Of a stretch of DNA of 45,643 nucleotides, positions 12,520 to 22,278 are shown piece after piece. The stretch is from Escherichia coli. GTDB lineage: Bacteria > Pseudomonadota > Gammaproteobacteria > Enterobacterales > Enterobacteriaceae. Every line of letters begins with the position of its first letter. Position 1 is the first letter of the stretch. The notes under the pieces were generated by a model, which did no database searches, was not told the origin of the DNA, and saw nothing but the letters and a program-made list of their open reading frames with translations. Both the position numbers and the translations under genes were made by a program. The stretch lies in the NCBI RefSeq assembly GCF_003334355.1, contig NZ_QOWP01000030.1. One strand, given 5' to 3'.

Positions 12520-13581
12520 TCAGTTATAGTTAATCTTAAAAAGCACCACTGTATCGAAGGGCCCAGCCTCGATGGGGGTACCTGCAATGGACGAAAGTTC
12601 AGCTGTATAGGTTTTTTCGTAGATCAACATGTCACTGGTGAAATCGGCGTATTCAGCATATTTATTGAAGGTATAAGGCGAGGCGTTTTCATCCAGTAAA
12701 CGTAGCTTCAGACCATTACCAATCAACAATGCTTTATCTTCTTCAACCAACGTTTCTTCGGTATAAAAGGAGGAACTAACTTTAAATCCGTCGGTGCATT
12801 GGTCATTTTGTGATTTTGTCGTCTTAATACTGAATGTTTTCGACATTGTGTGGCGACGAATATCCAGCAAATTAAATTTACCAAAATCTATCACCTGTGT
12901 TTCCGGTGAAATGGAAAAATTGACGCTGCAATCCAGCACGCGAATGTTTTCCAGACCAGTAATATGATATTTCAGGTTTTGGGCGGTAGGATCTTCGTTA
13001 ACGCTACCGGCACCGTCAAATTGCACGACGATATAGTCGCTAAGCGTACTTTGATAATCATGCGGCGGCATTTCTCGTATTTTGACGTATAACCGCATGC
13101 GAGCGAGAAAGGTACGCGACATGTGAATATTAGCGGGATCGCCCGAACAAATTTTGTTCTGCCATCCCATCGCGATGATCTGCTCAGGGGTATAAATGTC
13201 AATGTTCTTACTGTCGATACACTGGTTAGTGTCGATGCGGCTTTTTCCCTGGTTGGCGTCATAATCAACGCCATTGTAAGTTACGCCGAGTTGATAATAG
13301 CGATCCTGCACCCCCGGGTAGGGGTTTACCCAGGCGTAGACATGCTCACTTTCAAAGTTGCCGTTGGTATTGTTGTCACAATAGACGGGAATTTTAATAT
13401 CGTCAGATTCCCAAATCTTATCGCCGGGTTTGGCATTGCCTGGTACAGCAAAAGGTTGAATCACTTCTGATTTTTCTACCGAACCACCGGATGAACCAAA
13501 GTAGCAGTTCAGGGCAAGCGCAGACTTCAACGGCAGAAATAACAGACAGATGACGAGCAACACTCCCTTGCCAGCACTCAT
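12520..13581 (-). CDS. ybgO: Fimbrial adhesin-like protein, last gene of a chaperone-usher operon
   Basis: 353 aa from the ATG at 13581 ([23 protein letters not shown], signal peptide), with GGAGG 7 nt upstream. The ATG overlaps the ybgP stop (ATGA). Confidence 0.85.
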
Positions 13582-14323: not shown

Positions 14324-16783
14324 TTAATGACAAGGTAAAATCAGGCGATTTGCGGTGTCTTCCATATGTTCAGGAAGATGGAGCGAGCAATGCTGACTAT
14401 CACCCCAGACCACGGTAAACTTTTGATTTTCAGCGACTCCGCTTAACCAGGCATGTCCTTCCTCGCCAACCATCCCCACGCTAATGCCGCTGTCATCCTG
14501 GCGGATATCCGCTCCGAGGGGAGGAAACTGACCGCTGGCGTTGCGAATGATGACGTTAACGTCTTTACCGGAACGGGAAGCCAGTGATTTGTAACCTATC
14601 GCGCCTTCAATCCACGTTTCTTTGATAACGTTTTCTGCAACTGTTACGCCGTCGGGTAAGTCATTCATGTTCACCGCCACGGTGGAAGGCTGGTAACTGG
14701 AAATCAACGGCACCACCGCAATGCCAAAATGGTTGGTGTAGTCGAGATTGCCCTGAACCGGAATATCTGCCACGCCATCGGTGCTGACCATCAGGCGTGG
14801 TTCATTGGTGGAGCTGCGGCGATGAAACGCTGCACCATATTGGGTTGCGGTGAAAGAACCGCTCCAGCTGCTGCTGACGGAACTGTAATCATTGGCGGCA
14901 TAGGTACCAGAAATATCCCACTCACCCGCTGAACTCAGGTGCTGATAGTTACCGCTCACCTGGGCTCCATTGTCAGGACGGTCGGATTGCAGTCCGGCAG
15001 ACATGCCCCAGCTATTACGTTCATCCAGCGTATCGTTCCACGACATGCGGTGTGTGGTGCTGTGGCTACTGTTTTGCATGTCATAGCCAACCCGACCACC
15101 GTTACCGAAGGGGAGCGAAATCGACAGGTAAATCTGGTTGTCGCGATCTTTATCTTCGTAATGGGTTGTATTGAATGACGTCGAAATAGAGATATCTCTC
15201 CAGTCACCAATATCAACATTAAAACCTGCCGTGATGTTGGCGGTCGTGGAGGCGTCTGCATTCCACCAGGTTTGATGTAGCAGGTTGGCGTAAAGATTGA
15301 GGTTTAGTGGGGTAATCGGTTGGCCCACAGATAAGCTGATCGTCTGTTTTTCGTCCTGCGCATCGCTGTCGTTGTATTTGTGATCCAGATAGTTGGCGTA
15401 GCTGTGAAAATGACGATCGGAGAAACGATAAGCGGCGAGGGAAATCGTGCTGTTAGTGGCATCCACTTGTTTGCTGTAATTAAAACGGTAGCTTAAGCCC
15501 CGCTCGTCCTGCTGAGTATCAAAATGGCTACTGGCCCACGTGACATCAAACGACAGCGCACCAAGCCACAGCATATTTTGCCCAATACCCATTGCGGCAG
15601 AATGGTAGTCATCACCAGAAAGCAGCAGGCCGCCGTACAGCGAGGTGTTTGACAGCATCCCCCAGGAAACTTCATTGCTAAAAAAGGTTTCATTTTCAGT
15701 TTGATGTGACATGGAGGGCCGTGGCTGACCCGCGGCCAGTTTATAGCGAACCTGTCCCTGACGAGTCAGGAAGGGCGTCGATGCTGCCGAAACCTGGAAA
15801 TTGTTCACCCGACCATCTTCTTCCGTCACTTTGACATCAAGCGTGCCCTGAACAGACTGATTGAGGTCATCAATAATAAACAGTCCCGGAGGGACTTTTT
15901 TCTGGTAAATGACGCGACCTGATTGACTGATCGTCACCGTGGCATTGGTCTGTGCAATACCGCTAATTTGTGGGGCGTATCCGCGTAGCTCCCATGGCAA
16001 CATTCGATCGTCACTCGCCAGTGCCGCGCCAGTATAAGAAAAACCATCGAAAATATTGGAACTGAAATCGGTTTCGCCGAGGGTTAATTTAGAGCCTAAT
16101 TGCGGTAATGGACGAAAAAGATAGGTGCGCGATATTCCGCCTGACTGTTCATGGCTATCTTCGCTATCGGTGTTATTAAGCTGGTAATCACTGCGTAAGC
16201 GCCATGACCCGGCGTTAATTCCGGTGGTACCGTAGGCGTTCAGGTTAGTGCTGCTGCTGCCGTCCTGTGGGCGGTAGTTGCTGGCAAACAGGTTATAATC
16301 CATCAGGACCCCGGCAACACCTTCTTTCCATGTAGAGGGGGGAGCCCAGTTTTCTGAGTGCCACGCCAGCCAGGCTTGCGGAATACTAATATTCAGTTGC
16401 TGATTGGCTTGATCGAAATTGAAGAGCATTTCAGGTCGGGAACTGAAATCAATACACCGATCTATCTGTGGCAAGGACTGACGGATATCTGGTTTTAAAC
16501 CAAATTTATCGACCAGTGAATCATTGATGCATGGAATGGTTTTGTCACCCTTTTTTTGCCAGTTGATTTTTTGCCCATTACTGATTTGGTTGTTATTCAC
16601 CGCAACGCTAACAAAATATTCACCGGGAGCAATGACTCCTTTTTCCTTTAATAATGAAATATCAATGCGGTCGCGCATTGATTTATCGAGAACATTCAGA
16701 TTAAATTCGACCGCCAATGCGCAAGGCATCGCCATGACCAGGCAGGATAGAAAAGAGAGTCGATAAATATTCACGGTGTCCAT
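14324..16783 (-). CDS. ybgQ: Outer-membrane fimbrial usher protein
   Basis: Large usher-like ORF of about 820 aa. The ATG at 16783 (MDTVNIYRLSF...) is preferred; the 833-codon track start at 16825 is a TTG placed upstream of a GC-rich hairpin. Confidence 0.85.
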   Translation of the reverse strand: MDTVNIYRLSFLSCLVMAMPCALAVEFNLNVLDKSMRDRIDISLLKEKGVIAPGEYFVSVAVNNNQISNGQKINWQKKGDKTIPCINDSLVDKFGLKPDIRQSLPQIDRCIDFSSRPEMLFNFDQANQQLNISIPQAWLAWHSENWAPPSTWKEGVAGVLMDYNLFASNYRPQDGSSSTNLNAYGTTGINAGSWRLRSDYQLNNTDSEDSHEQSGGISRTYLFRPLPQLGSKLTLGETDFSSNIFDGFSYTGAALASDDRMLPWELRGYAPQISGIAQTNATVTISQSGRVIYQKKVPPGLFIIDDLNQSVQGTLDVKVTEEDGRVNNFQVSAASTPFLTRQGQVRYKLAAGQPRPSMSHQTENETFFSNEVSWGMLSNTSLYGGLLLSGDDYHSAAMGIGQNMLWLGALSFDVTWASSHFDTQQDERGLSYRFNYSKQVDATNSTISLAAYRFSDRHFHSYANYLDHKYNDSDAQDEKQTISLSVGQPITPLNLNLYANLLHQTWWNADASTTANITAGFNVDIGDWRDISISTSFNTTHYEDKDRDNQIYLSISLPFGNGGRVGYDMQNSSHSTTHRMSWNDTLDERNSWGMSAGLQSDRPDNGAQVSGNYQHLSSAGEWDISGTYAANDYSSVSSSWSGSFTATQYGAAFHRRSSTNEPRLMVSTDGVADIPVQGNLDYTNHFGIAVVPLISSYQPSTVAVNMNDLPDGVTVAENVIKETWIEGAIGYKSLASRSGKDVNVIIRNASGQFPPLGADIRQDDSGISVGMVGEEGHAWLSGVAENQKFTVVWGDSQHCSLHLPEHMEDTANRLILPCH

Positions 16784-16833
16784 ACCTGATAAATATTTGA
16801 AGAAAGGCGGCGATAGCGCCGCCAAAGTAATAC

Positions 16834-17400
16834 TTATTTATAATCCAGCACGTAGGTCGCATTCGCTGTAACTGCGCCTGGCGTTACAGGTGTAGCCTGA
16901 TCAATTTGTTCCATCCAGGCAAAGAAATTCAGCGTTTGTTCGCTGGAGGTCGGAGCCAGGTCGATATCTGGAGTAGCGGTGCCTAAAACGATATTGCTTT
17001 GATCTTTATTCATTAAACGTACGCCGACGCCGGTGGCTTCACCCGTGCTGGTGTTGTTGAGAATCGGATCTGCGCCGGTGGTTTTCGCTGAGCTATCAAA
17101 GGTGACTGCAACTTTAGAAATCTTGCCACCGGAACCGTTGCTGGAGTTTTCCAGATCACAGTTGACTAAGCGCAGGTCGACAGCAACGGCATCGCTGTGA
17201 TGTGACTGATTAATGTGGCTGGTGGTCACCTGACCGAGTTCAACCTCTTTATCAATATCATCCTGATGTATTTCACACGGTGCTTCAATAACTTCACCTT
17301 TAAAGTGAATTTCACCGGATCCTTCATCAGCTGCATAAACAGGTGCAGTGAATAGCAGAGATATGGCCAGAGCGGTCAATGTTTTTTGTCCTTTAAACAT
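16834..17400 (-). CDS. ybgD: Fimbrial major subunit-like protein
   Basis: 188 aa from the ATG at 17400 (MFKGQKTLTALAISLLFTAPVYA, signal peptide), with AAGGA 8 nt upstream. First gene of the ybgD-Q-P-O operon. Confidence 0.88.
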   Translation of the reverse strand: MFKGQKTLTALAISLLFTAPVYAADEGSGEIHFKGEVIEAPCEIHQDDIDKEVELGQVTTSHINQSHHSDAVAVDLRLVNCDLENSSNGSGGKISKVAVTFDSSAKTTGADPILNNTSTGEATGVGVRLMNKDQSNIVLGTATPDIDLAPTSSEQTLNFFAWMEQIDQATPVTPGAVTANATYVLDYK

Positions 17401-17727
17401 AACTGAGTCCTTTAAATAATGAGATAGAGTGTTGCGTGGCAAGAATATATAAAATGACAATTGAATGTATTTGGTTTTATTTAATAATATTAAAAAGCTT
17501 GTGATATAAAGAATGGAATAATTGAGTGCATAAATTTATTGTTTAATGAGATGAAGGATGGGGTGGGATGGATATGCATAATTTTCATTGGGTTAACAAT
17601 GTTACCGGCAGGGAAGTATAAAAATAAACTTATCATTCTGCTCAGTATGTGACTTGTCTCATTTTTTCACCTTATTAATGGGTATTTGCATCTGGTTTAA
17701 TTTTTACAATTTTTTATGTTCAGCCAT

Positions 17728-17759
17728 ATAAAAAAGAACCCGCTCTATTAAAGGCGGGT
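17728..17759 (-). terminator. Putative intrinsic terminator downstream of gltA
   Basis: On the minus strand: ACCCGC stem, 10-nt loop, GCGGGT, then UCUUUUUU. Lies 30 nt past the gltA stop. Confidence 0.5.
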
Positions 17760-17789
17760 CCGGAAAGTAAACGGCTTAGCAATCAATCA

Positions 17790-19073
17790 TTAACGCTTGA
17801 TATCGCTTTTAAAGTCGCGTTTTTCATATCCTGTATACAGCTGACGCGGACGGGCAATCTTCATACCGTCACTGTGCATCTCGCTCCAGTGGGCGATCCA
17901 GCCAACGGTACGTGCCATTGCGAAAATGACGGTGAACATGGAAGACGGAATACCCATCGCTTTCAGGATGATACCAGAGTAGAAATCGACGTTCGGGTAC
18001 AGTTTCTTCTCGATAAAGTACGGGTCGTTCAGCGCGATGTTTTCCAGCTCCATAGCCACTTCCAGCAGGTCATCCTTCGTGCCCAGCTCTTTCAGCACTT
18101 CATGGCAGGTTTCACGCATTACGGTGGCGCGCGGGTCGTAATTTTTGTACACGCGGTGACCGAAGCCCATCAGGCGGAAAGAATCATTTTTATCTTTCGC
18201 ACGACGAACAAATTCCGGAATGTGTTTAACGGAGCTGATTTCTTCCAGCATTTTCAGCGCTGCTTCGTTAGCACCACCGTGCGCAGGTCCCCACAGTGAA
18301 GCAATACCTGCTGCGATACAGGCAAACGGGTTCGCACCCGAAGAGCCAGCGGTACGCACGGTGGAGGTGGAGGCGTTCTGTTCATGGTCAGCGTGCAGGA
18401 TCAAAATACGGTCCATAGCACGTTCCAGAATCGGATTAACTTCATACGGTTCGCACGGCGTAGAGAACATCATATTCAGGAAGTTACCGGCGTAGGAGAG
18501 ATCGTTGCGCGGGTAAACAAATGGCTGACCAATGGAATACTTGTAACACATCGCTGCCATGGTCGGCATTTTCGACAGCAGGCGGAACGCGGCAATTTCA
18601 CGATGACGAGGATTGTTAACATCCAGCGAGTCGTGATAGAACGCCGCCAGCGCGCCGGTAATACCACACATGACTGCCATTGGATGTGAGTCGCGACGGA
18701 AAGCGTGGAACAGACGGGTAATCTGCTCGTGGATCATGGTATGACGGGTCACCGTAGTTTTAAATTCGTCATACTGTTCCTGAGTCGGTTTTTCACCATT
18801 CAGCAGGATGTAACAAACTTCCAGGTAGTTAGAATCGGTCGCCAGCTGATCGATCGGGAAACCGCGGTGCAGCAAAATACCTTCATCACCATCAATAAAA
18901 GTAATTTTAGATTCGCAGGATGCGGTTGAAGTGAAGCCAGGGTCAAAGGTGAACACACCTTTTGAACCGAGAGTACGGATATCAATAACATCTTGACCCA
19001 GCGTGCCTTTCAGCACATCCAGTTCAACAGCTGTGTCCCCGTTGAGGGTGAGTTTTGCTTTTGTATCAGCCAT
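17790..19073 (-). CDS. gltA: Citrate synthase (type II)
   Basis: 427-aa ORF; translation recognised as E. coli citrate synthase. Confidence 0.97.
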
Positions 19074-19524
19074 TTAAGGTCTCCTTAGCGCCTTATTGCG
19101 TAAGACTGCCGGAACTTAAATTTGCCTTCGCACATCAACCTGGCTTTACCCGTTTGTTATTTGGCTCGCCGCTCTGTGAAAGAGGGGAAAACCTGGGTAC
19201 AGAGCTCTGGGCGCTTGCAGGTAAAGGATCCATTGATGACGAATAAATGGCGAATCAAGTACTTAGCAATCCGAATTATTAAACTTGTCTACCACTAATA
19301 ACTGTCCCGAATGAATTGGTCAATACTTCCACACTGTTACATAAGTTAATCTTAGGTGAAATACCGACTTCATAACTTTTACGCATTATATGCTTTTCCT
19401 GGTAATGTTTGTAACAACTTTGTTGAATGATTGTCAAATTAGATGATTAAAAATTAAATAAATGTTGTTATCGTGACCTAGATCACTGTTCAGGATAAAA
19501 CCCGACAAACTATATGTAGGTTAA

Positions 19525-19553
19525 TTGTAATGATTTTGTGAACGGCCTATACT
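19525..19553 (+). promoter_or_regulatory. Candidate sdhC sigma-70 promoter: -35 TTGTAA (19525..19530), 17-nt spacer, -10 TATACT (19548..19553)
   Basis: Hexamers read directly from the sequence. The predicted start site near 19560 would give a leader of about 220 nt, consistent with the long sRNA-targeted sdhC leader I recall. Confidence 0.5.
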
Positions 19554-19781
19554 GCCGCCAGGTCTCCGGAACACCCTGCAATCCCGAGCCACCCAGCGTT
19601 GTAACGTGTCGTTTTCGCATCTGGAAGCAGTGTTTTGCATGACGCGCAGTTATAGAAAGGACGCTGTCTGACCCGCAAGCAGACCGGAGGAAGGAAATCC
19701 CGACGTCTCCAGGTAACAGAAAGTTAACCTCTGTGCCCGTAGTCCCCAGGGAATAATAAGAACAGCATGTGGGCGTTATTC

Positions 19782-20171
19782 ATGATAAGAAATGTGAAAA
19801 AACAAAGACCTGTTAATCTGGACCTACAGACCATCCGGTTCCCCATCACGGCGATAGCGTCCATTCTCCATCGCGTTTCCGGTGTGATCACCTTTGTTGC
19901 AGTGGGCATCCTGCTGTGGCTTCTGGGTACCAGCCTCTCTTCCCCTGAAGGTTTCGAGCAAGCTTCCGCGATTATGGGCAGCTTCTTCGTCAAATTTATC
20001 ATGTGGGGCATCCTTACCGCTCTGGCGTATCACGTCGTCGTAGGTATTCGCCACATGATGATGGATTTTGGCTATCTGGAAGAAACATTCGAAGCGGGTA
20101 AACGCTCCGCCAAAATCTCCTTTGTTATTACTGTCGTGCTTTCACTTCTCGCAGGAGTCCTCGTATGGTAA
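19782..20171 (+). CDS. sdhC: Succinate dehydrogenase cytochrome b556 large membrane subunit
   Basis: 129 aa from the ATG at 19782 ([15 protein letters not shown]...). The track ORF begins 5 codons upstream. Confidence 0.93.
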
Positions 20172-20512
20172 GCAACGCCTCCGCATTAGGACGCAATGGC
20201 GTACATGATTTCATCCTCGTTCGCGCTACCGCTATCGTCCTGACGCTCTACATCATTTATATGGTCGGTTTTTTCGCTACCAGTGGCGAGCTGACATATG
20301 AAGTCTGGATCGGTTTCTTCGCCTCTGCGTTCACCAAAGTGTTCACCCTGCTGGCGCTGTTTTCTATCTTGATCCATGCCTGGATCGGCATGTGGCAGGT
20401 GTTGACCGACTACGTTAAACCGCTGGCTTTGCGCCTGATGCTGCAACTGGTGATTGTCGTTGCACTGGTGGTTTACGTGATTTATGGATTCGTTGTGGTG
20501 TGGGGTGTGTGA
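20165..20512 (+). CDS. sdhD: Succinate dehydrogenase hydrophobic membrane anchor subunit
   Basis: 115-aa ORF overlapping sdhC by 7 nt; its stop TGA overlaps the sdhA ATG. Confidence 0.95.
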
Positions 20513-22278
20513 TGAAATTGCCAGTCAGAGAATTTGATGCAGTTGTGATTGGTGCCGGCGGCGCAGGTATGCGCGCGGCGCTGCAAATTTCCCAGAGCGG
20601 CCAGACCTGTGCGCTGCTCTCTAAAGTCTTCCCGACCCGTTCCCATACCGTTTCTGCGCAAGGCGGCATTACCGTTGCGCTGGGTAATACCCATGAAGAT
20701 AACTGGGAATGGCATATGTACGACACCGTAAAAGGGTCGGACTATATCGGTGACCAGGACGCGATTGAATATATGTGTAAAACCGGGCCGGAAGCGATTC
20801 TGGAACTCGAACACATGGGCCTGCCGTTCTCGCGTCTTGATGATGGTCGTATCTATCAACGTCCGTTTGGCGGTCAGTCGAAAAACTTCGGCGGCGAGCA
20901 GGCGGCACGCACTGCGGCAGCGGCTGACCGTACCGGTCACGCACTGTTGCACACGCTTTATCAGCAGAACCTGAAAAACCACACCACCATTTTCTCCGAG
21001 TGGTATGCGCTGGATCTGGTGAAAAACCAGGATGGCGCGGTGGTGGGTTGTACCGCACTGTGCATCGAAACCGGTGAAGTGGTTTATTTCAAAGCCCGCG
21101 CTACCGTGCTGGCGACTGGCGGGGCAGGGCGTATTTATCAGTCCACCACTAACGCCCACATTAACACTGGCGACGGTGTCGGCATGGCTATCCGCGCAGG
21201 CGTACCGGTGCAGGATATGGAAATGTGGCAATTCCACCCGACCGGCATTGCCGGTGCGGGCGTACTGGTCACCGAAGGTTGCCGTGGTGAAGGCGGTTAT
21301 CTGCTGAACAAACATGGCGAACGCTTTATGGAGCGTTATGCGCCGAACGCCAAAGACCTGGCGGGCCGTGATGTGGTGGCGCGTTCCATCATGATTGAAA
21401 TCCGTGAAGGTCGCGGCTGTGATGGTCCGTGGGGGCCACACGCGAAACTGAAACTCGATCACCTGGGTAAAGAAGTTCTCGAATCCCGTTTGCCGGGTAT
21501 CCTGGAGCTTTCCCGTACCTTCGCTCACGTTGATCCGGTGAAAGAGCCGATTCCGGTTATCCCAACCTGTCACTACATGATGGGCGGTATTCCGACCAAA
21601 GTGACCGGTCAGGCGCTGACTGTGAATGAGAAAGGCGAAGATGTGGTTGTTCCGGGGCTGTTCGCGGTAGGTGAAATTGCCTGCGTATCGGTACACGGTG
21701 CTAACCGTCTGGGCGGTAACTCGCTGCTGGACCTGGTGGTCTTTGGTCGCGCAGCGGGTCTGCATCTGCAAGAGTCTATCGCCGAGCAGGGCGCATTGCG
21801 CGATGCCAGCGAGTCTGATGTTGAAGCATCTCTGGATCGTCTGAACCGCTGGAACAATAATCGTAACGGTGAAGATCCGGTGGCGATTCGTAAAGCGCTG
21901 CAAGAATGTATGCAGCATAACTTCTCGGTCTTCCGTGAAGGTGATGCGATGGCGAAAGGGCTTGAGCAGTTGAAAGTTATCCGCGAGCGTCTGAAAAATG
22001 CCCGTCTGGATGACACTTCCAGCGAGTTCAACACCCAGCGCGTTGAGTGCCTGGAACTGGATAACCTGATGGAAACGGCGTATGCAACGGCTGTTTCTGC
22101 CAACTTCCGTACCGAAAGCCGTGGCGCGCATAGCCGCTTCGACTTCCCGGATCGTGATGATGAAAACTGGCTGTGCCACTCCCTGTATCTGCCAGAGTCG
22201 GAATCCATGACGCGCCGAAGCGTCAACATGGAACCGAAACTGCGCCCGGCATTCCCGCCGAAGATTCGTACTTACTAA
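20512..22278 (+). CDS. sdhA: Succinate dehydrogenase flavoprotein subunit
   Basis: 588 aa from [24 protein letters not shown] (FAD-binding GxGxxG motif). Confidence 0.97.

Follow-up and report, generated by a model that had tools for sequence, protein, structure and literature searches.

The intergenic control region shared by the divergent tricarboxylic acid (TCA) cycle genes gltA and sdhC, together with its sdhC promoter and the long sdhC leader, is already known and is among the best-characterised regulatory regions of Escherichia coli (Wilde and Guest 1986; Park et al. 1995; Shen and Gunsalus 1997; Nam et al. 2005; Park et al. 2013). The leader is also the subject of a paradigm of Hfq recruitment by a small RNA (sRNA), in which Spot 42 base-pairs with the sdhC 5' untranslated region (5' UTR) ahead of the start codon and brings Hfq to the initiation region, near which an A/U-rich Hfq site has been described (Desnoyers and Masse 2012). 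Regulation of sdhC by RyhB and RybB has been reported as well, and gltA is itself a reported target of Spot 42 (Spf). Furthermore, the ERIC/IRU repeats (Sharples and Lloyd 1990; Hulton et al. 1991) are intergenic, transcribed, imperfect palindromes that form a multi-copy family. Here we describe a computational analysis of the gltA-sdhC region of E. coli contig NZ_QOWP01000030.1 (assembly GCF_003334355.1), of which a stretch of 45,643 nucleotides, referred to as the window, was analysed.

Region 19074-19781 of the window is the E. coli gltA/sdhC intergenic control region; its 708 bp separate the gltA ATG (19073, minus strand) from the K-12 sdhC ATG (19782). An earlier note, made from the letters of the DNA, had proposed a divergent gltA-sdhC control region of about 700 bp here, and the flanking open reading frames (ORFs) are indeed annotated as gltA and sdhC in ATCC 8739 and MG1655. 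The main points of that note stood; it had missed the small ORFs ybgU and ybgV, the gltA promoters, the Spot 42 site of the gltA leader, the ERIC insertion and the structured 5' domain. The region aligns without gaps to K-12 MG1655 754469-755176 with three single-nucleotide polymorphisms (SNPs; 19156 G/T, 19480 A/G and 19544 G/A), window coordinates being those of MG1655 (U00096.3) minus 735395. It shares the promoter, the start 219 nt 5' of sdhC, the ArcA sites and the CRP site with the published region, with no difference in kind, and was found in 5426/5426 complete E. coli genomes, with an identity of at least 99% in 5370. It is present in one copy per genome, apart from one genome with two places; one copy is on a plasmid record. 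We are highly confident that this is the known divergent control region of the TCA-cycle genes gltA (minus strand) and sdhCDAB-sucABCD (plus strand), with a three-module leader.

The modular anatomy of this leader would be a modest new layer, computational in nature. The present analysis adds that the predicted Spot 42 site is probably ERIC-derived and restricted to one lineage, that the 5' domain is conserved, apparently structured and matched by an in vivo 3' end, and that the ybgU ORF apparently decays despite conserved DNA. The first two, taken together, would read as follows. The Spot 42 site of the sdhC Hfq-recruitment paradigm would have been made by an ERIC that inserted and then lost its core, bringing sdh under the catabolite-repression loop of CRP and Spot 42 in the Escherichia, Salmonella and Citrobacter lineage alone and mimicking an ancient CUCUGUACCC site of the gltA leader; and the 134-nt 5' domain would be an undescribed conserved structured RNA of Enterobacteriaceae, capping the mRNA at its 5' end, masking a Shine-Dalgarno-like GGAGG and building up as a discrete 5' fragment with its 3' end at 19696. 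We advance this combination tentatively, as falling slightly short of an even chance.

Interspecies comparison was based on an alignment of 79 intergenic regions, that of the window and one each from 78 other Enterobacteriaceae species. The divergent gltA/sdhC layout was retained in 79 of 80 loci, with a spacing of 637-1159 bp, and the region was conserved across genera nearly throughout, with a sharp exception at about 19697-19751, where identity dropped to about 0.15. This interval directly follows the 5' domain of the leader, for which the following features were located:

19563..19696, plus strand: 5' domain of the sdhC leader, 134 nt, predicted to form a single closed irregular stem of 41 pairs
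19620..19642, plus strand: central hairpin of the 5' domain, with 13 bp complementary to the RyhB seed and 8 nt matching the 5' end of RybB
19696 and 19703, plus strand: two RNA 3' ends in the sdhC leader (Term-seq, MG1655 755091(+) and 755098(+)), not Rho-dependent

Outside the central hairpin the 5' domain was mostly 80-100% conserved per base, and RNAalifold and the E. coli minimum free energy (MFE) structure agreed on one closed irregular stem. Its predicted first helix joins the 5' end of the mRNA, UCUCCGG, with CCGGAGG at 19684-19690; the next helices are CUGC/GCAG and CAGCGU/ACGCUG, followed by the inner helices and the central hairpin. In the unfitted MAFFT alignment 90% of cells formed pairs, compared with 29-50% with slid partners, and the covariation score was reached by 1 of 500 shuffles. 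A covariance model built on the predicted structure gave exactly one match in each of 81 sources, including Serratia. In the alignment fitted to this structure 92% of cells paired, 12 pairs with 59 cells were doubly compensatory and 41 extra pair types were seen; these compensatory counts were each reached by 0 of 500 shuffles and lay above every slid-partner control. The comparisons suggest a conserved 134-nt domain with a covariation-supported predicted fold, which makes up two-thirds of the leader and is absent from Rfam: a permissive scan of 18800-20100 returned no Rfam match apart from one chance hit (E = 8.7) to a human long non-coding RNA model.

The alternative that survives best is that the 134-nt stretch is conserved at the DNA level, for transcription factor sites downstream of +1 or promoter-proximal elements, and that the fold is incidental; we consider it improbable, albeit a serious competitor. 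Several results weigh against the structured RNA and are what this alternative would lead one to expect. Folding energies were no better than those of shuffled sequences, either for the 5' domain (z = -0.16) or for the full leader (z = +0.60). The strongest covariation comes from the alignment fitted to the structure, the unfitted signal being weaker, and the three outer helices are near-invariant, with 16 of 23 pairs that never vary and are hence uninformative either way. It should also be added that in the MFE structure of the full-length E. coli leader GGAGG pairs with CUCC of the ERIC left arm and not with the 5' end. As to protein binding, ArcA is reported with four sites at the sdhC promoter and a CpxR site was proposed downstream of +1; however, both ArcA peaks from chromatin immunoprecipitation sequencing (ChIP-seq) are centred upstream of the sdhC +1. 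Conservation of DNA alone would, moreover, leave unaccounted for the compensatory changes and extra pair types, which exceed all 500 shuffles and every slid control, the signal already present before any fitting, and the two RNA 3' ends, which lie 6 and 13 nt past the closing helix, at the junction of the 5' domain with the ERIC block.

We therefore favour a structured RNA, and the position of its 3' ends hints at the pattern expected if exonucleases trim back to stable structure. An intrinsic terminator at 19696/19703 was considered and rejected: the single terminator-like match was weak and belongs to the other strand, and neither end has a U-tract.

A helix at the 5' end of an mRNA impedes 5'-end-dependent attack by RNase E, and the stem-loop of the ompA 5' UTR is reportedly an mRNA stabiliser of this kind. 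As in 5'-terminal stem-loop stabilisers of the ompA type, the predicted sdhC helix starts at or within 1-3 nt of the 5' end. Unlike in the small ompA-type hairpin, its partner strand is 120 nt away and contains the Shine-Dalgarno-like GGAGG, and the whole is a long irregular stem known by prediction. We infer that the 5' domain may protect the mRNA 5' end and stabilise the mRNA; it would pair the very 5' end with the Shine-Dalgarno-like CCGGAGG, leaving a stable 5' fragment ending at 19696.

Pairing with sRNAs was assessed by windowed local duplex energies, using the E. coli sRNA sequences for every species and shuffles as the control. This approach replaced the folding of full-length sRNA-leader duplexes, which had produced unrealistic end-to-end duplexes that were no better than shuffles. 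All sRNA sites discussed here are accordingly energy predictions with E. coli sRNA sequences assumed for all species, which has to be counted against the proposals built on them. The third module of the leader, at the start of translation, comprises two features:

19748..19766, plus strand: ribosome-binding region and likely Hfq site, AGGGA plus A/U-rich AAUAAUAAGAACAGC, 80% conserved
19763..19785, plus strand: predicted RyhB pairing site of the initiation region, CAGCAUGUGGGCGUUAUUCAUGA, spanning both candidate start codons of sdhC

Nucleotides 34-55 of RyhB pair with 19763-19785 at -16.5 kcal/mol, and this target is essentially invariant in the 79 sequences (96% conserved). The initiation module, 19752-19811, is 80-96% conserved, third codon positions included, and the A/U-rich AAUAAUAAGAA that adjoins the RyhB site matches the described Hfq site. 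The second-best RybB site in the leader was found at 19748-19771. RyhB, and probably RybB, would pair directly with this invariant module, blocking translation and triggering decay by RNase E. The statement in the earlier note that the leader is a target of several small RNAs agrees with the published record for RyhB, Spot 42 and RybB.

The strongest RyhB complementarity of the leader nevertheless lies in the central hairpin of the 5' domain, where 13 bp at 19621-19633 (CUGGAAGCAGUGU) give -24.3 kcal/mol, reached by 2 of 60 shuffles, against -16.5 kcal/mol at the initiation region. The 5' end of RybB matches 8 nt of the same stretch, about 150 nt upstream of the start codon. This could be a second functional RyhB (and RybB) site that opens the 5' domain or acts as a decoy, and energies of -20 to -24 kcal/mol are kept in Escherichia, Citrobacter, Salmonella, Enterobacter, Lelliottia and Leclercia. 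We find this doubtful, somewhat more so than conservation at the DNA level. The match has disappeared from Klebsiella, Raoultella and Buttiauxella (-6 to -14 kcal/mol), whereas the site at the initiation region is invariant; in Klebsiella and Buttiauxella the hairpin persists with another sequence, and in other genera its sequence changes with compensation. The values are marginal before correction for three sRNAs (p of about 0.03 for RyhB; RybB seed complementarity against shuffles 0.17, not significant), and no accessible paper reports such a site.

The second module of the leader, and the Spot 42 sites of both divergent leaders, are as follows:

19697..19751, plus strand: 55-nt insertion in the sdhC leader, read here as a short, internally deleted ERIC/IRU element
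19717..19739, plus strand: predicted Spot 42 site in the sdhC leader, core CCUCUGUGCCC (19729-19739), in the new loop and right arm of the short ERIC
19194..19216, minus strand: predicted Spot 42 site in the gltA leader, core GCUCUGUACCCA, at -143..-121 from the gltA ATG

Of the 79 aligned regions, 59 have practically no block at this place (0-2 nt), 14 have one of 53-58 nt and the remaining 6 one of 120-125 nt, always at the same junction. The form of 53-58 nt belongs to the window and 13 species of Escherichia, Salmonella and Citrobacter, and that of 120-125 nt to two Lelliottia, Huaxiibacter, a Leclercia metagenome-assembled genome, Klebsiella spallanzanii and strain RIT714. Across 4324 E. 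coli genomes the 125-nt form was matched at 13,128 places, with a median of 3 and a maximum of 7 per genome; none of the 12 listed matches was under an annotated feature. It folds as a long imperfect hairpin (z = -2.0); the folding energy of the short form did not differ significantly from that of shuffles (z = -0.7). The long sdhC-leader forms align end to end with the ERIC copy of the aceF-lpdA spacer. This copy contains two primer sequences of the ERIC polymerase chain reaction back to back, with 1 and 3 mismatches, which we take to be the standard ERIC1R and ERIC2, sequences that co-occur in 233 papers. The long forms keep the core, with the ERIC2 region at 4-6 mismatches, while the short forms align to both ERIC arms and miss a core of about 65 nt. 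Identities of the two arms to the long form are 24/25 and 23/27 in C. youngae, 23/25 and 21/27 in Salmonella, and 20/26 and 18/27 in the window.

The window copy itself is the most difficult part of this argument. Its arms have diverged, their identities equalling the maximum of 2000 random windows, BLAST of the window with full ERIC copies gave no match, and the homology rests on the intermediates and on the shared insertion site; all this weighs against an ERIC origin. Because BLAST found nothing in the window, ERIC identity was argued through the orthologous long forms. One could instead take the 55-nt block for a fast-evolving, unconstrained spacer whose likeness to ERIC arms is coincidental, which would suit arms that equal, and do not exceed, the best random window, the silence of BLAST and the absence of the central core with its primer sites. 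We hold this to be very unlikely: the block is all-or-none at one precise junction, six species have at that same junction an element that matches a genuine ERIC over its full length and belongs to a multi-copy family, the short forms of Citrobacter and Salmonella bridge the gap, and the near-invariant flanks make local fast evolution unlikely.

We conclude from these alignments that 19697-19751 is probably an internally deleted ERIC/IRU derivative, found as the short form only in Escherichia, Salmonella and Citrobacter. Like the described repeats, the leader element is intergenic and transcribed, as part of a 5' UTR, has arms of an imperfect palindrome, is polymorphic for presence and absence at an orthologous site, and belongs to a multi-copy family with a primer-matching core in the full-length copies. 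In contrast to canonical ERIC, the window copy is 55 nt long, lacks the core of about 65 nt, is invisible to BLAST and is fixed in all 5426 E. coli genomes. The palindrome of about 126 bp with a central ERIC1R/ERIC2 core is not seen in it and, because the core is deleted, we call the element an ERIC derivative and not a canonical ERIC. The element is not annotated in MG1655. No accessible paper connected ERIC with this leader, in a search that reached neither the classical ERIC catalogues nor the primary paper on Spot 42 and sdhC, and a prior description is possible. It should be added that records labelled 'Citrobacter freundii M-21' and 'Citrobacter sp. 18056' are without the short ERIC, the leader of M-21 being Atlantibacter-like.

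The short ERIC of the window appears to have been co-opted as an sRNA target. Nucleotides 4-25 of Spot 42 pair with 19717-19739 at -26.4 kcal/mol, a value reached by 0 of 60 shuffles and the best local Spot 42 interaction in the leader. Strong pairing was confined to the 14 short-ERIC sequences, the window included (mean -22.9 kcal/mol, Salmonella being weakest at -18.2), and lay at background in the six long-ERIC species (-14.9) and the 59 ERIC-less species (-15.1). The position of the predicted site agrees with the published description of Spot 42 on sdhC. As in the Hfq-recruitment system of Desnoyers and Masse (2012), it lies well 5' of the ribosome-binding site, with an A/U-rich Hfq site near the initiation region; what would be added to that system is the location of the site inside a lineage-restricted, ERIC-derived insertion of 55 nt. 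In the accessible literature no statement was found that the Spot 42 site is ERIC-borne.

The site in the gltA leader, with which nucleotides 4-24 of Spot 42 pair at -21.1 kcal/mol (0 of 40 shuffles), is 82% conserved. Both divergent leaders would therefore carry nearly the same 10-nt complement of the Spot 42 seed, apparently ancient in gltA and ERIC-borne in sdhC. Conservation differs by sRNA target: with E. coli sRNAs assumed, the RyhB initiation site is invariant, the Spot 42 site of gltA is conserved, and the Spot 42 site of sdhC is restricted to the short-ERIC clade. In the mechanism that we propose, the 55-nt ERIC, acquired in the lineage of Escherichia, Salmonella and Citrobacter, would supply the Spot 42 seed complement, and Spot 42 bound there would recruit Hfq, by the published mechanism, to the A/U-rich site beside the ribosome-binding region.

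Transcription of this leader starts from the following elements:

19525..19553, plus strand: sdhC sigma-70 promoter, -35 TTGTAA at 19525-19530, 17-nt spacer, -10 TATACT at 19548-19553
19554..19563, plus strand: GC-rich discriminator GCCGCCAGG and transcription start, 99% conserved, published +1 at 19563

TTGTAA-17-TATACT has 9 of 12 consensus matches and is the sole sigma-70-like match within 18900-19950. As shuffled sequence gives 1.4 such matches on average, the single match found is not above chance and is by itself no evidence of a promoter, a point against this assignment. The start was obtained from the literature: Park et al. (2013) describe their sdhC-side ArcA site (U00096.2 754110-754163) as lying at -71..-18 from the sdhC start, and since the sequence of this site was confirmed in the window at 19492-19545, +1 falls at 19563, 219 nt 5' of the K-12 ATG at 19782. 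The earlier note's proposal of this very promoter, with a start near 19560 and a long leader of about 220 nt, was thus off by 3 nt for the start and correct for the hexamers, and its refuting condition, mapped starts away from 19560, did not apply. A single sdh promoter was mapped in Salmonella, where a mutation of the -10, identical in our alignment to that of the window, cuts sdhCDAB mRNA at least 10-fold and where the discriminator mediates occlusion by sigma-S holoenzyme. With +1 at 19563, which is 9-10 nt beyond the -10 hexamer, the -10 would occupy -15..-10, 2-3 nt too far, which also speaks against the assignment as it stands; the true start may be at 19560-19561, where A19560 or G19561 suit the -10 spacing better. 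The name of a fusion from the Masse laboratory, 'SdhC258', equals 219 + 39 nt; should its number be a count of nucleotides from +1, this would correspond to a leader of 219 nt and 13 codons.

A fortuitous occurrence of the hexamers, with sdhC transcribed from some other point of the AT-rich region, is what the count in shuffles and a distance of 9 nt from -10 to +1 (usually 6-7) might suggest. It has a negligible probability and is already effectively refuted by the conservation across the 78 other species (both hexamers 100%, discriminator 99% identical), the published start directly downstream, the loss of sdh mRNA in the Salmonella -10 mutant and the overlap of an ArcA site with the -35, as expected of a repressor. 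Sigma-70 RNA polymerase starts sdhC transcription from TTGTAA-17-TATACT at about 19560-19563, and the GC-rich discriminator permits occlusion by sigma-S holoenzyme. Two of the SNPs lie in this area and are probably neutral: 19544 G (A in MG1655), in the promoter spacer and last ArcA repeat region, and 19480 A (G in MG1655), in the spacer of the CRP site. Both positions vary between species.

The binding sites of transcription factors upstream of the start are:

19409..19440, no strand assigned: ArcA-P site on the gltA side, three direct repeats, TTGTAACAACTTTGTTGAATGATTGTCAAATT, from ChIP-seq and the position weight matrix (PWM) of Park et al. (2013), 80% conserved
19492..19545, no strand assigned: ArcA-P site on the sdhC side, four direct repeats over the -35 hexamer and spacer (Park et al. 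2013), 91% conserved
19472..19487, no strand assigned: CRP site, CGTGACCTAGATCACT, 8/10 match to TGTGA-N6-TCACA, centred at -83.5 from 19563

Located with the PWM of Park et al. (2013), both ArcA sites consist of degenerate TGTTA-like direct repeats at 11-bp phasing; the gltA-side site (754027-754058) was given by these authors at '-68 to -37'. The two ChIP-seq regions match older footprints, and in an arcA mutant sdhCDAB was up 133-fold and gltA 7.1-fold. Of the multiple GTTAAT-like ArcA half-sites proposed in the earlier note, binding by ArcA stood, in these two regions, and an excess of the word did not: in the word count of the region GTTAAT occurred 2 times against 0.6 expected (p = 0.13) and GTTAA 4 times against 2.5 expected (p = 0.25), and only the GTTAAT at 19520 falls inside an experimentally defined ArcA site. 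The accompanying claim of AT-richness held for the core, 19271-19559, with a GC content of 0.33 against 0.50 for the whole window. ArcA-P represses anaerobically by covering -71..-18 through four direct repeats, with the second, three-repeat site on the gltA side.

The half-sites of the CRP site are about 100% conserved in the 79 regions while its spacer is free to vary, which looks like a classic signature of function. The word count alone was not significant (p = 0.28), and the literature places a CRP site about 94 bp upstream of the sdhC start. The palindrome lies upstream of the -35, on the helical face appropriate to a class I site, and CRP-cAMP activates sdhC from this site centred at -83.5. 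Motif scanning for ArcA, CRP and Fur had been suggested as a check; it gave the CRP match, with exact ArcA words within chance, and matches to the Fur box and to FNR motifs in the region were likewise within chance, so that no direct Fur or FNR site is claimed. Control of sdh by Fur is documented as acting through RyhB. It should be added that the sole regularly spaced ArcA-like repeat pair found by regular expression, GGTTAACTTTCTGTTA (minus strand), lies within 19713-19730, in the Escherichia-specific loop of the short ERIC, as apparently does the putative CpxR site proposed downstream of +1 by Tsviklist et al. As both are in that loop, any ArcA-like or CpxR regulation at 19713-19730 would be lineage-specific.

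Downstream of the leader, the coding sequence of sdhC has an ambiguous start:

19767..20171, plus strand: sdhC coding sequence with two in-frame ATGs, 19767 (134 aa, MWALFMIRN..., PGAP) and 19782 (129 aa, K-12 annotation)

Both ATGs and the 15 nt between them are about 96% conserved. Three divergent species (L080, L084 and L085) are without that stretch and have GTG at the position of the upstream-ATG region.

The minus strand of the region contains a second set of elements:

17790..19073, minus strand: gltA (citrate synthase) coding sequence, 427-aa ORF, ATG at 19073-19071, annotated in ATCC 8739 and MG1655
19279..19386, minus strand: ybgU, 35-aa small-protein gene (MG1655 b4735), protein detected by SPA tagging in the literature
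19263..19295, minus strand: ybgV, 10-codon upstream ORF (uORF) with a GTG start (MG1655 b4768), protein detected by tagging in the literature
19385..19390, minus strand: perfect TATAAT, candidate -10 of the distal gltA promoter P2, overlapping the ybgU ATG (19386-19384)
19275..19280, minus strand: AATAAT, candidate -10 of P1, the proximal gltA promoter, whose start near 19269 falls within ybgV
19252, minus strand: abundant RNA 3' end in the gltA leader (Term-seq, MG1655 754647(-)), 11 nt past the ybgV stop codon

Two gltA promoters, gltAp1 and gltAp2, exist according to the literature. The distal start implied by Park et al. (2013) is 19372, 299 nt from the gltA ATG; TATAAT at 19390-19385 is better conserved across species than the ybgU ATG, and a perfect TTGACA is found at 19437-19432 (minus strand), inside the gltA-side ArcA site. 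Wilde and Guest reportedly placed P1 at -196, near 19269, which AATAAT at 19280-19275 would fit. As the proximal start falls inside ybgV, this ORF is a uORF on the distal gltA transcript only. The ybgU ATG is 12-14 nt upstream of the published distal start at 19372, and the detected YbgU, beginning upstream of it, therefore requires a more distal minus-strand start.

Chromosomal tagging and immunoblots have detected both YbgU and YbgV. YbgU as a conserved protein was nevertheless rejected, since beyond Escherichia its ORF decays and the underlying DNA remains conserved: about 18 species have lost the start codon, and many have a stop at codon 10 or 14. The GTG of ybgV is retained in 78 of 79 sequences, and its peptide ranges in length from 1 to 32 aa. 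Since neither ORF is maintained across species, conservation of the DNA at ybgU and ybgV is taken as regulatory and not protein-coding. Adams et al. (2021) flag the 3' end at 19252, which is not Rho-dependent, as a candidate 'uORF' event. As in other leaders among their candidates, where a uORF accompanies a premature 3' end, ybgV is a short ORF with an abundant 3' end just past its stop; it differs in that its peptide varies in length and sequence, and in that the proximal gltA promoter starts within it. Transcription of gltA proceeds from the two promoters, the distal transcript carrying the short uORF ybgV and the conserved predicted Spot 42 site.

Two further observations concern the surroundings and the public records. 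The fimbrial-like gene beside gltA (ybgD region, 16834-17460 and upstream) is highly diverged from MG1655 and contains most of the 402 mismatches counted when 16605-21605 is compared without gaps with that strain. As gltA-sdhC is near-identical between the two, this suggests a recombination or hypervariable boundary just past gltA. Moreover, several public records are apparently mislabelled (loci L051, L059 and L072), among them a 'Chryseobacterium sp.' contig with an enterobacterial gltA-sdhC locus and the two Citrobacter records without the short ERIC mentioned above.

The region acts as a switch that shuts the TCA cycle in the absence of oxygen (through ArcA), on glucose (through CRP and Spot 42), when iron is limiting (through RyhB) and in stationary phase (through sigma-S), and it is a useful positive control, as its start was predicted from raw sequence within 3 nt. 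Its leader is not uniform, and the predicted sRNA sites appear to differ in age, that of RyhB being ancient and invariant and that of Spot 42 recent and repeat-derived. The Spot 42-sdhC mechanism should consequently not be assumed for Klebsiella, Enterobacter and other genera without the insertion. If confirmed, the short ERIC would be a testable example of mobile repeats rewiring sRNA networks, with a repeat co-opted as an sRNA target, and the 5' domain would point to a further layer of control of the sdh mRNA.

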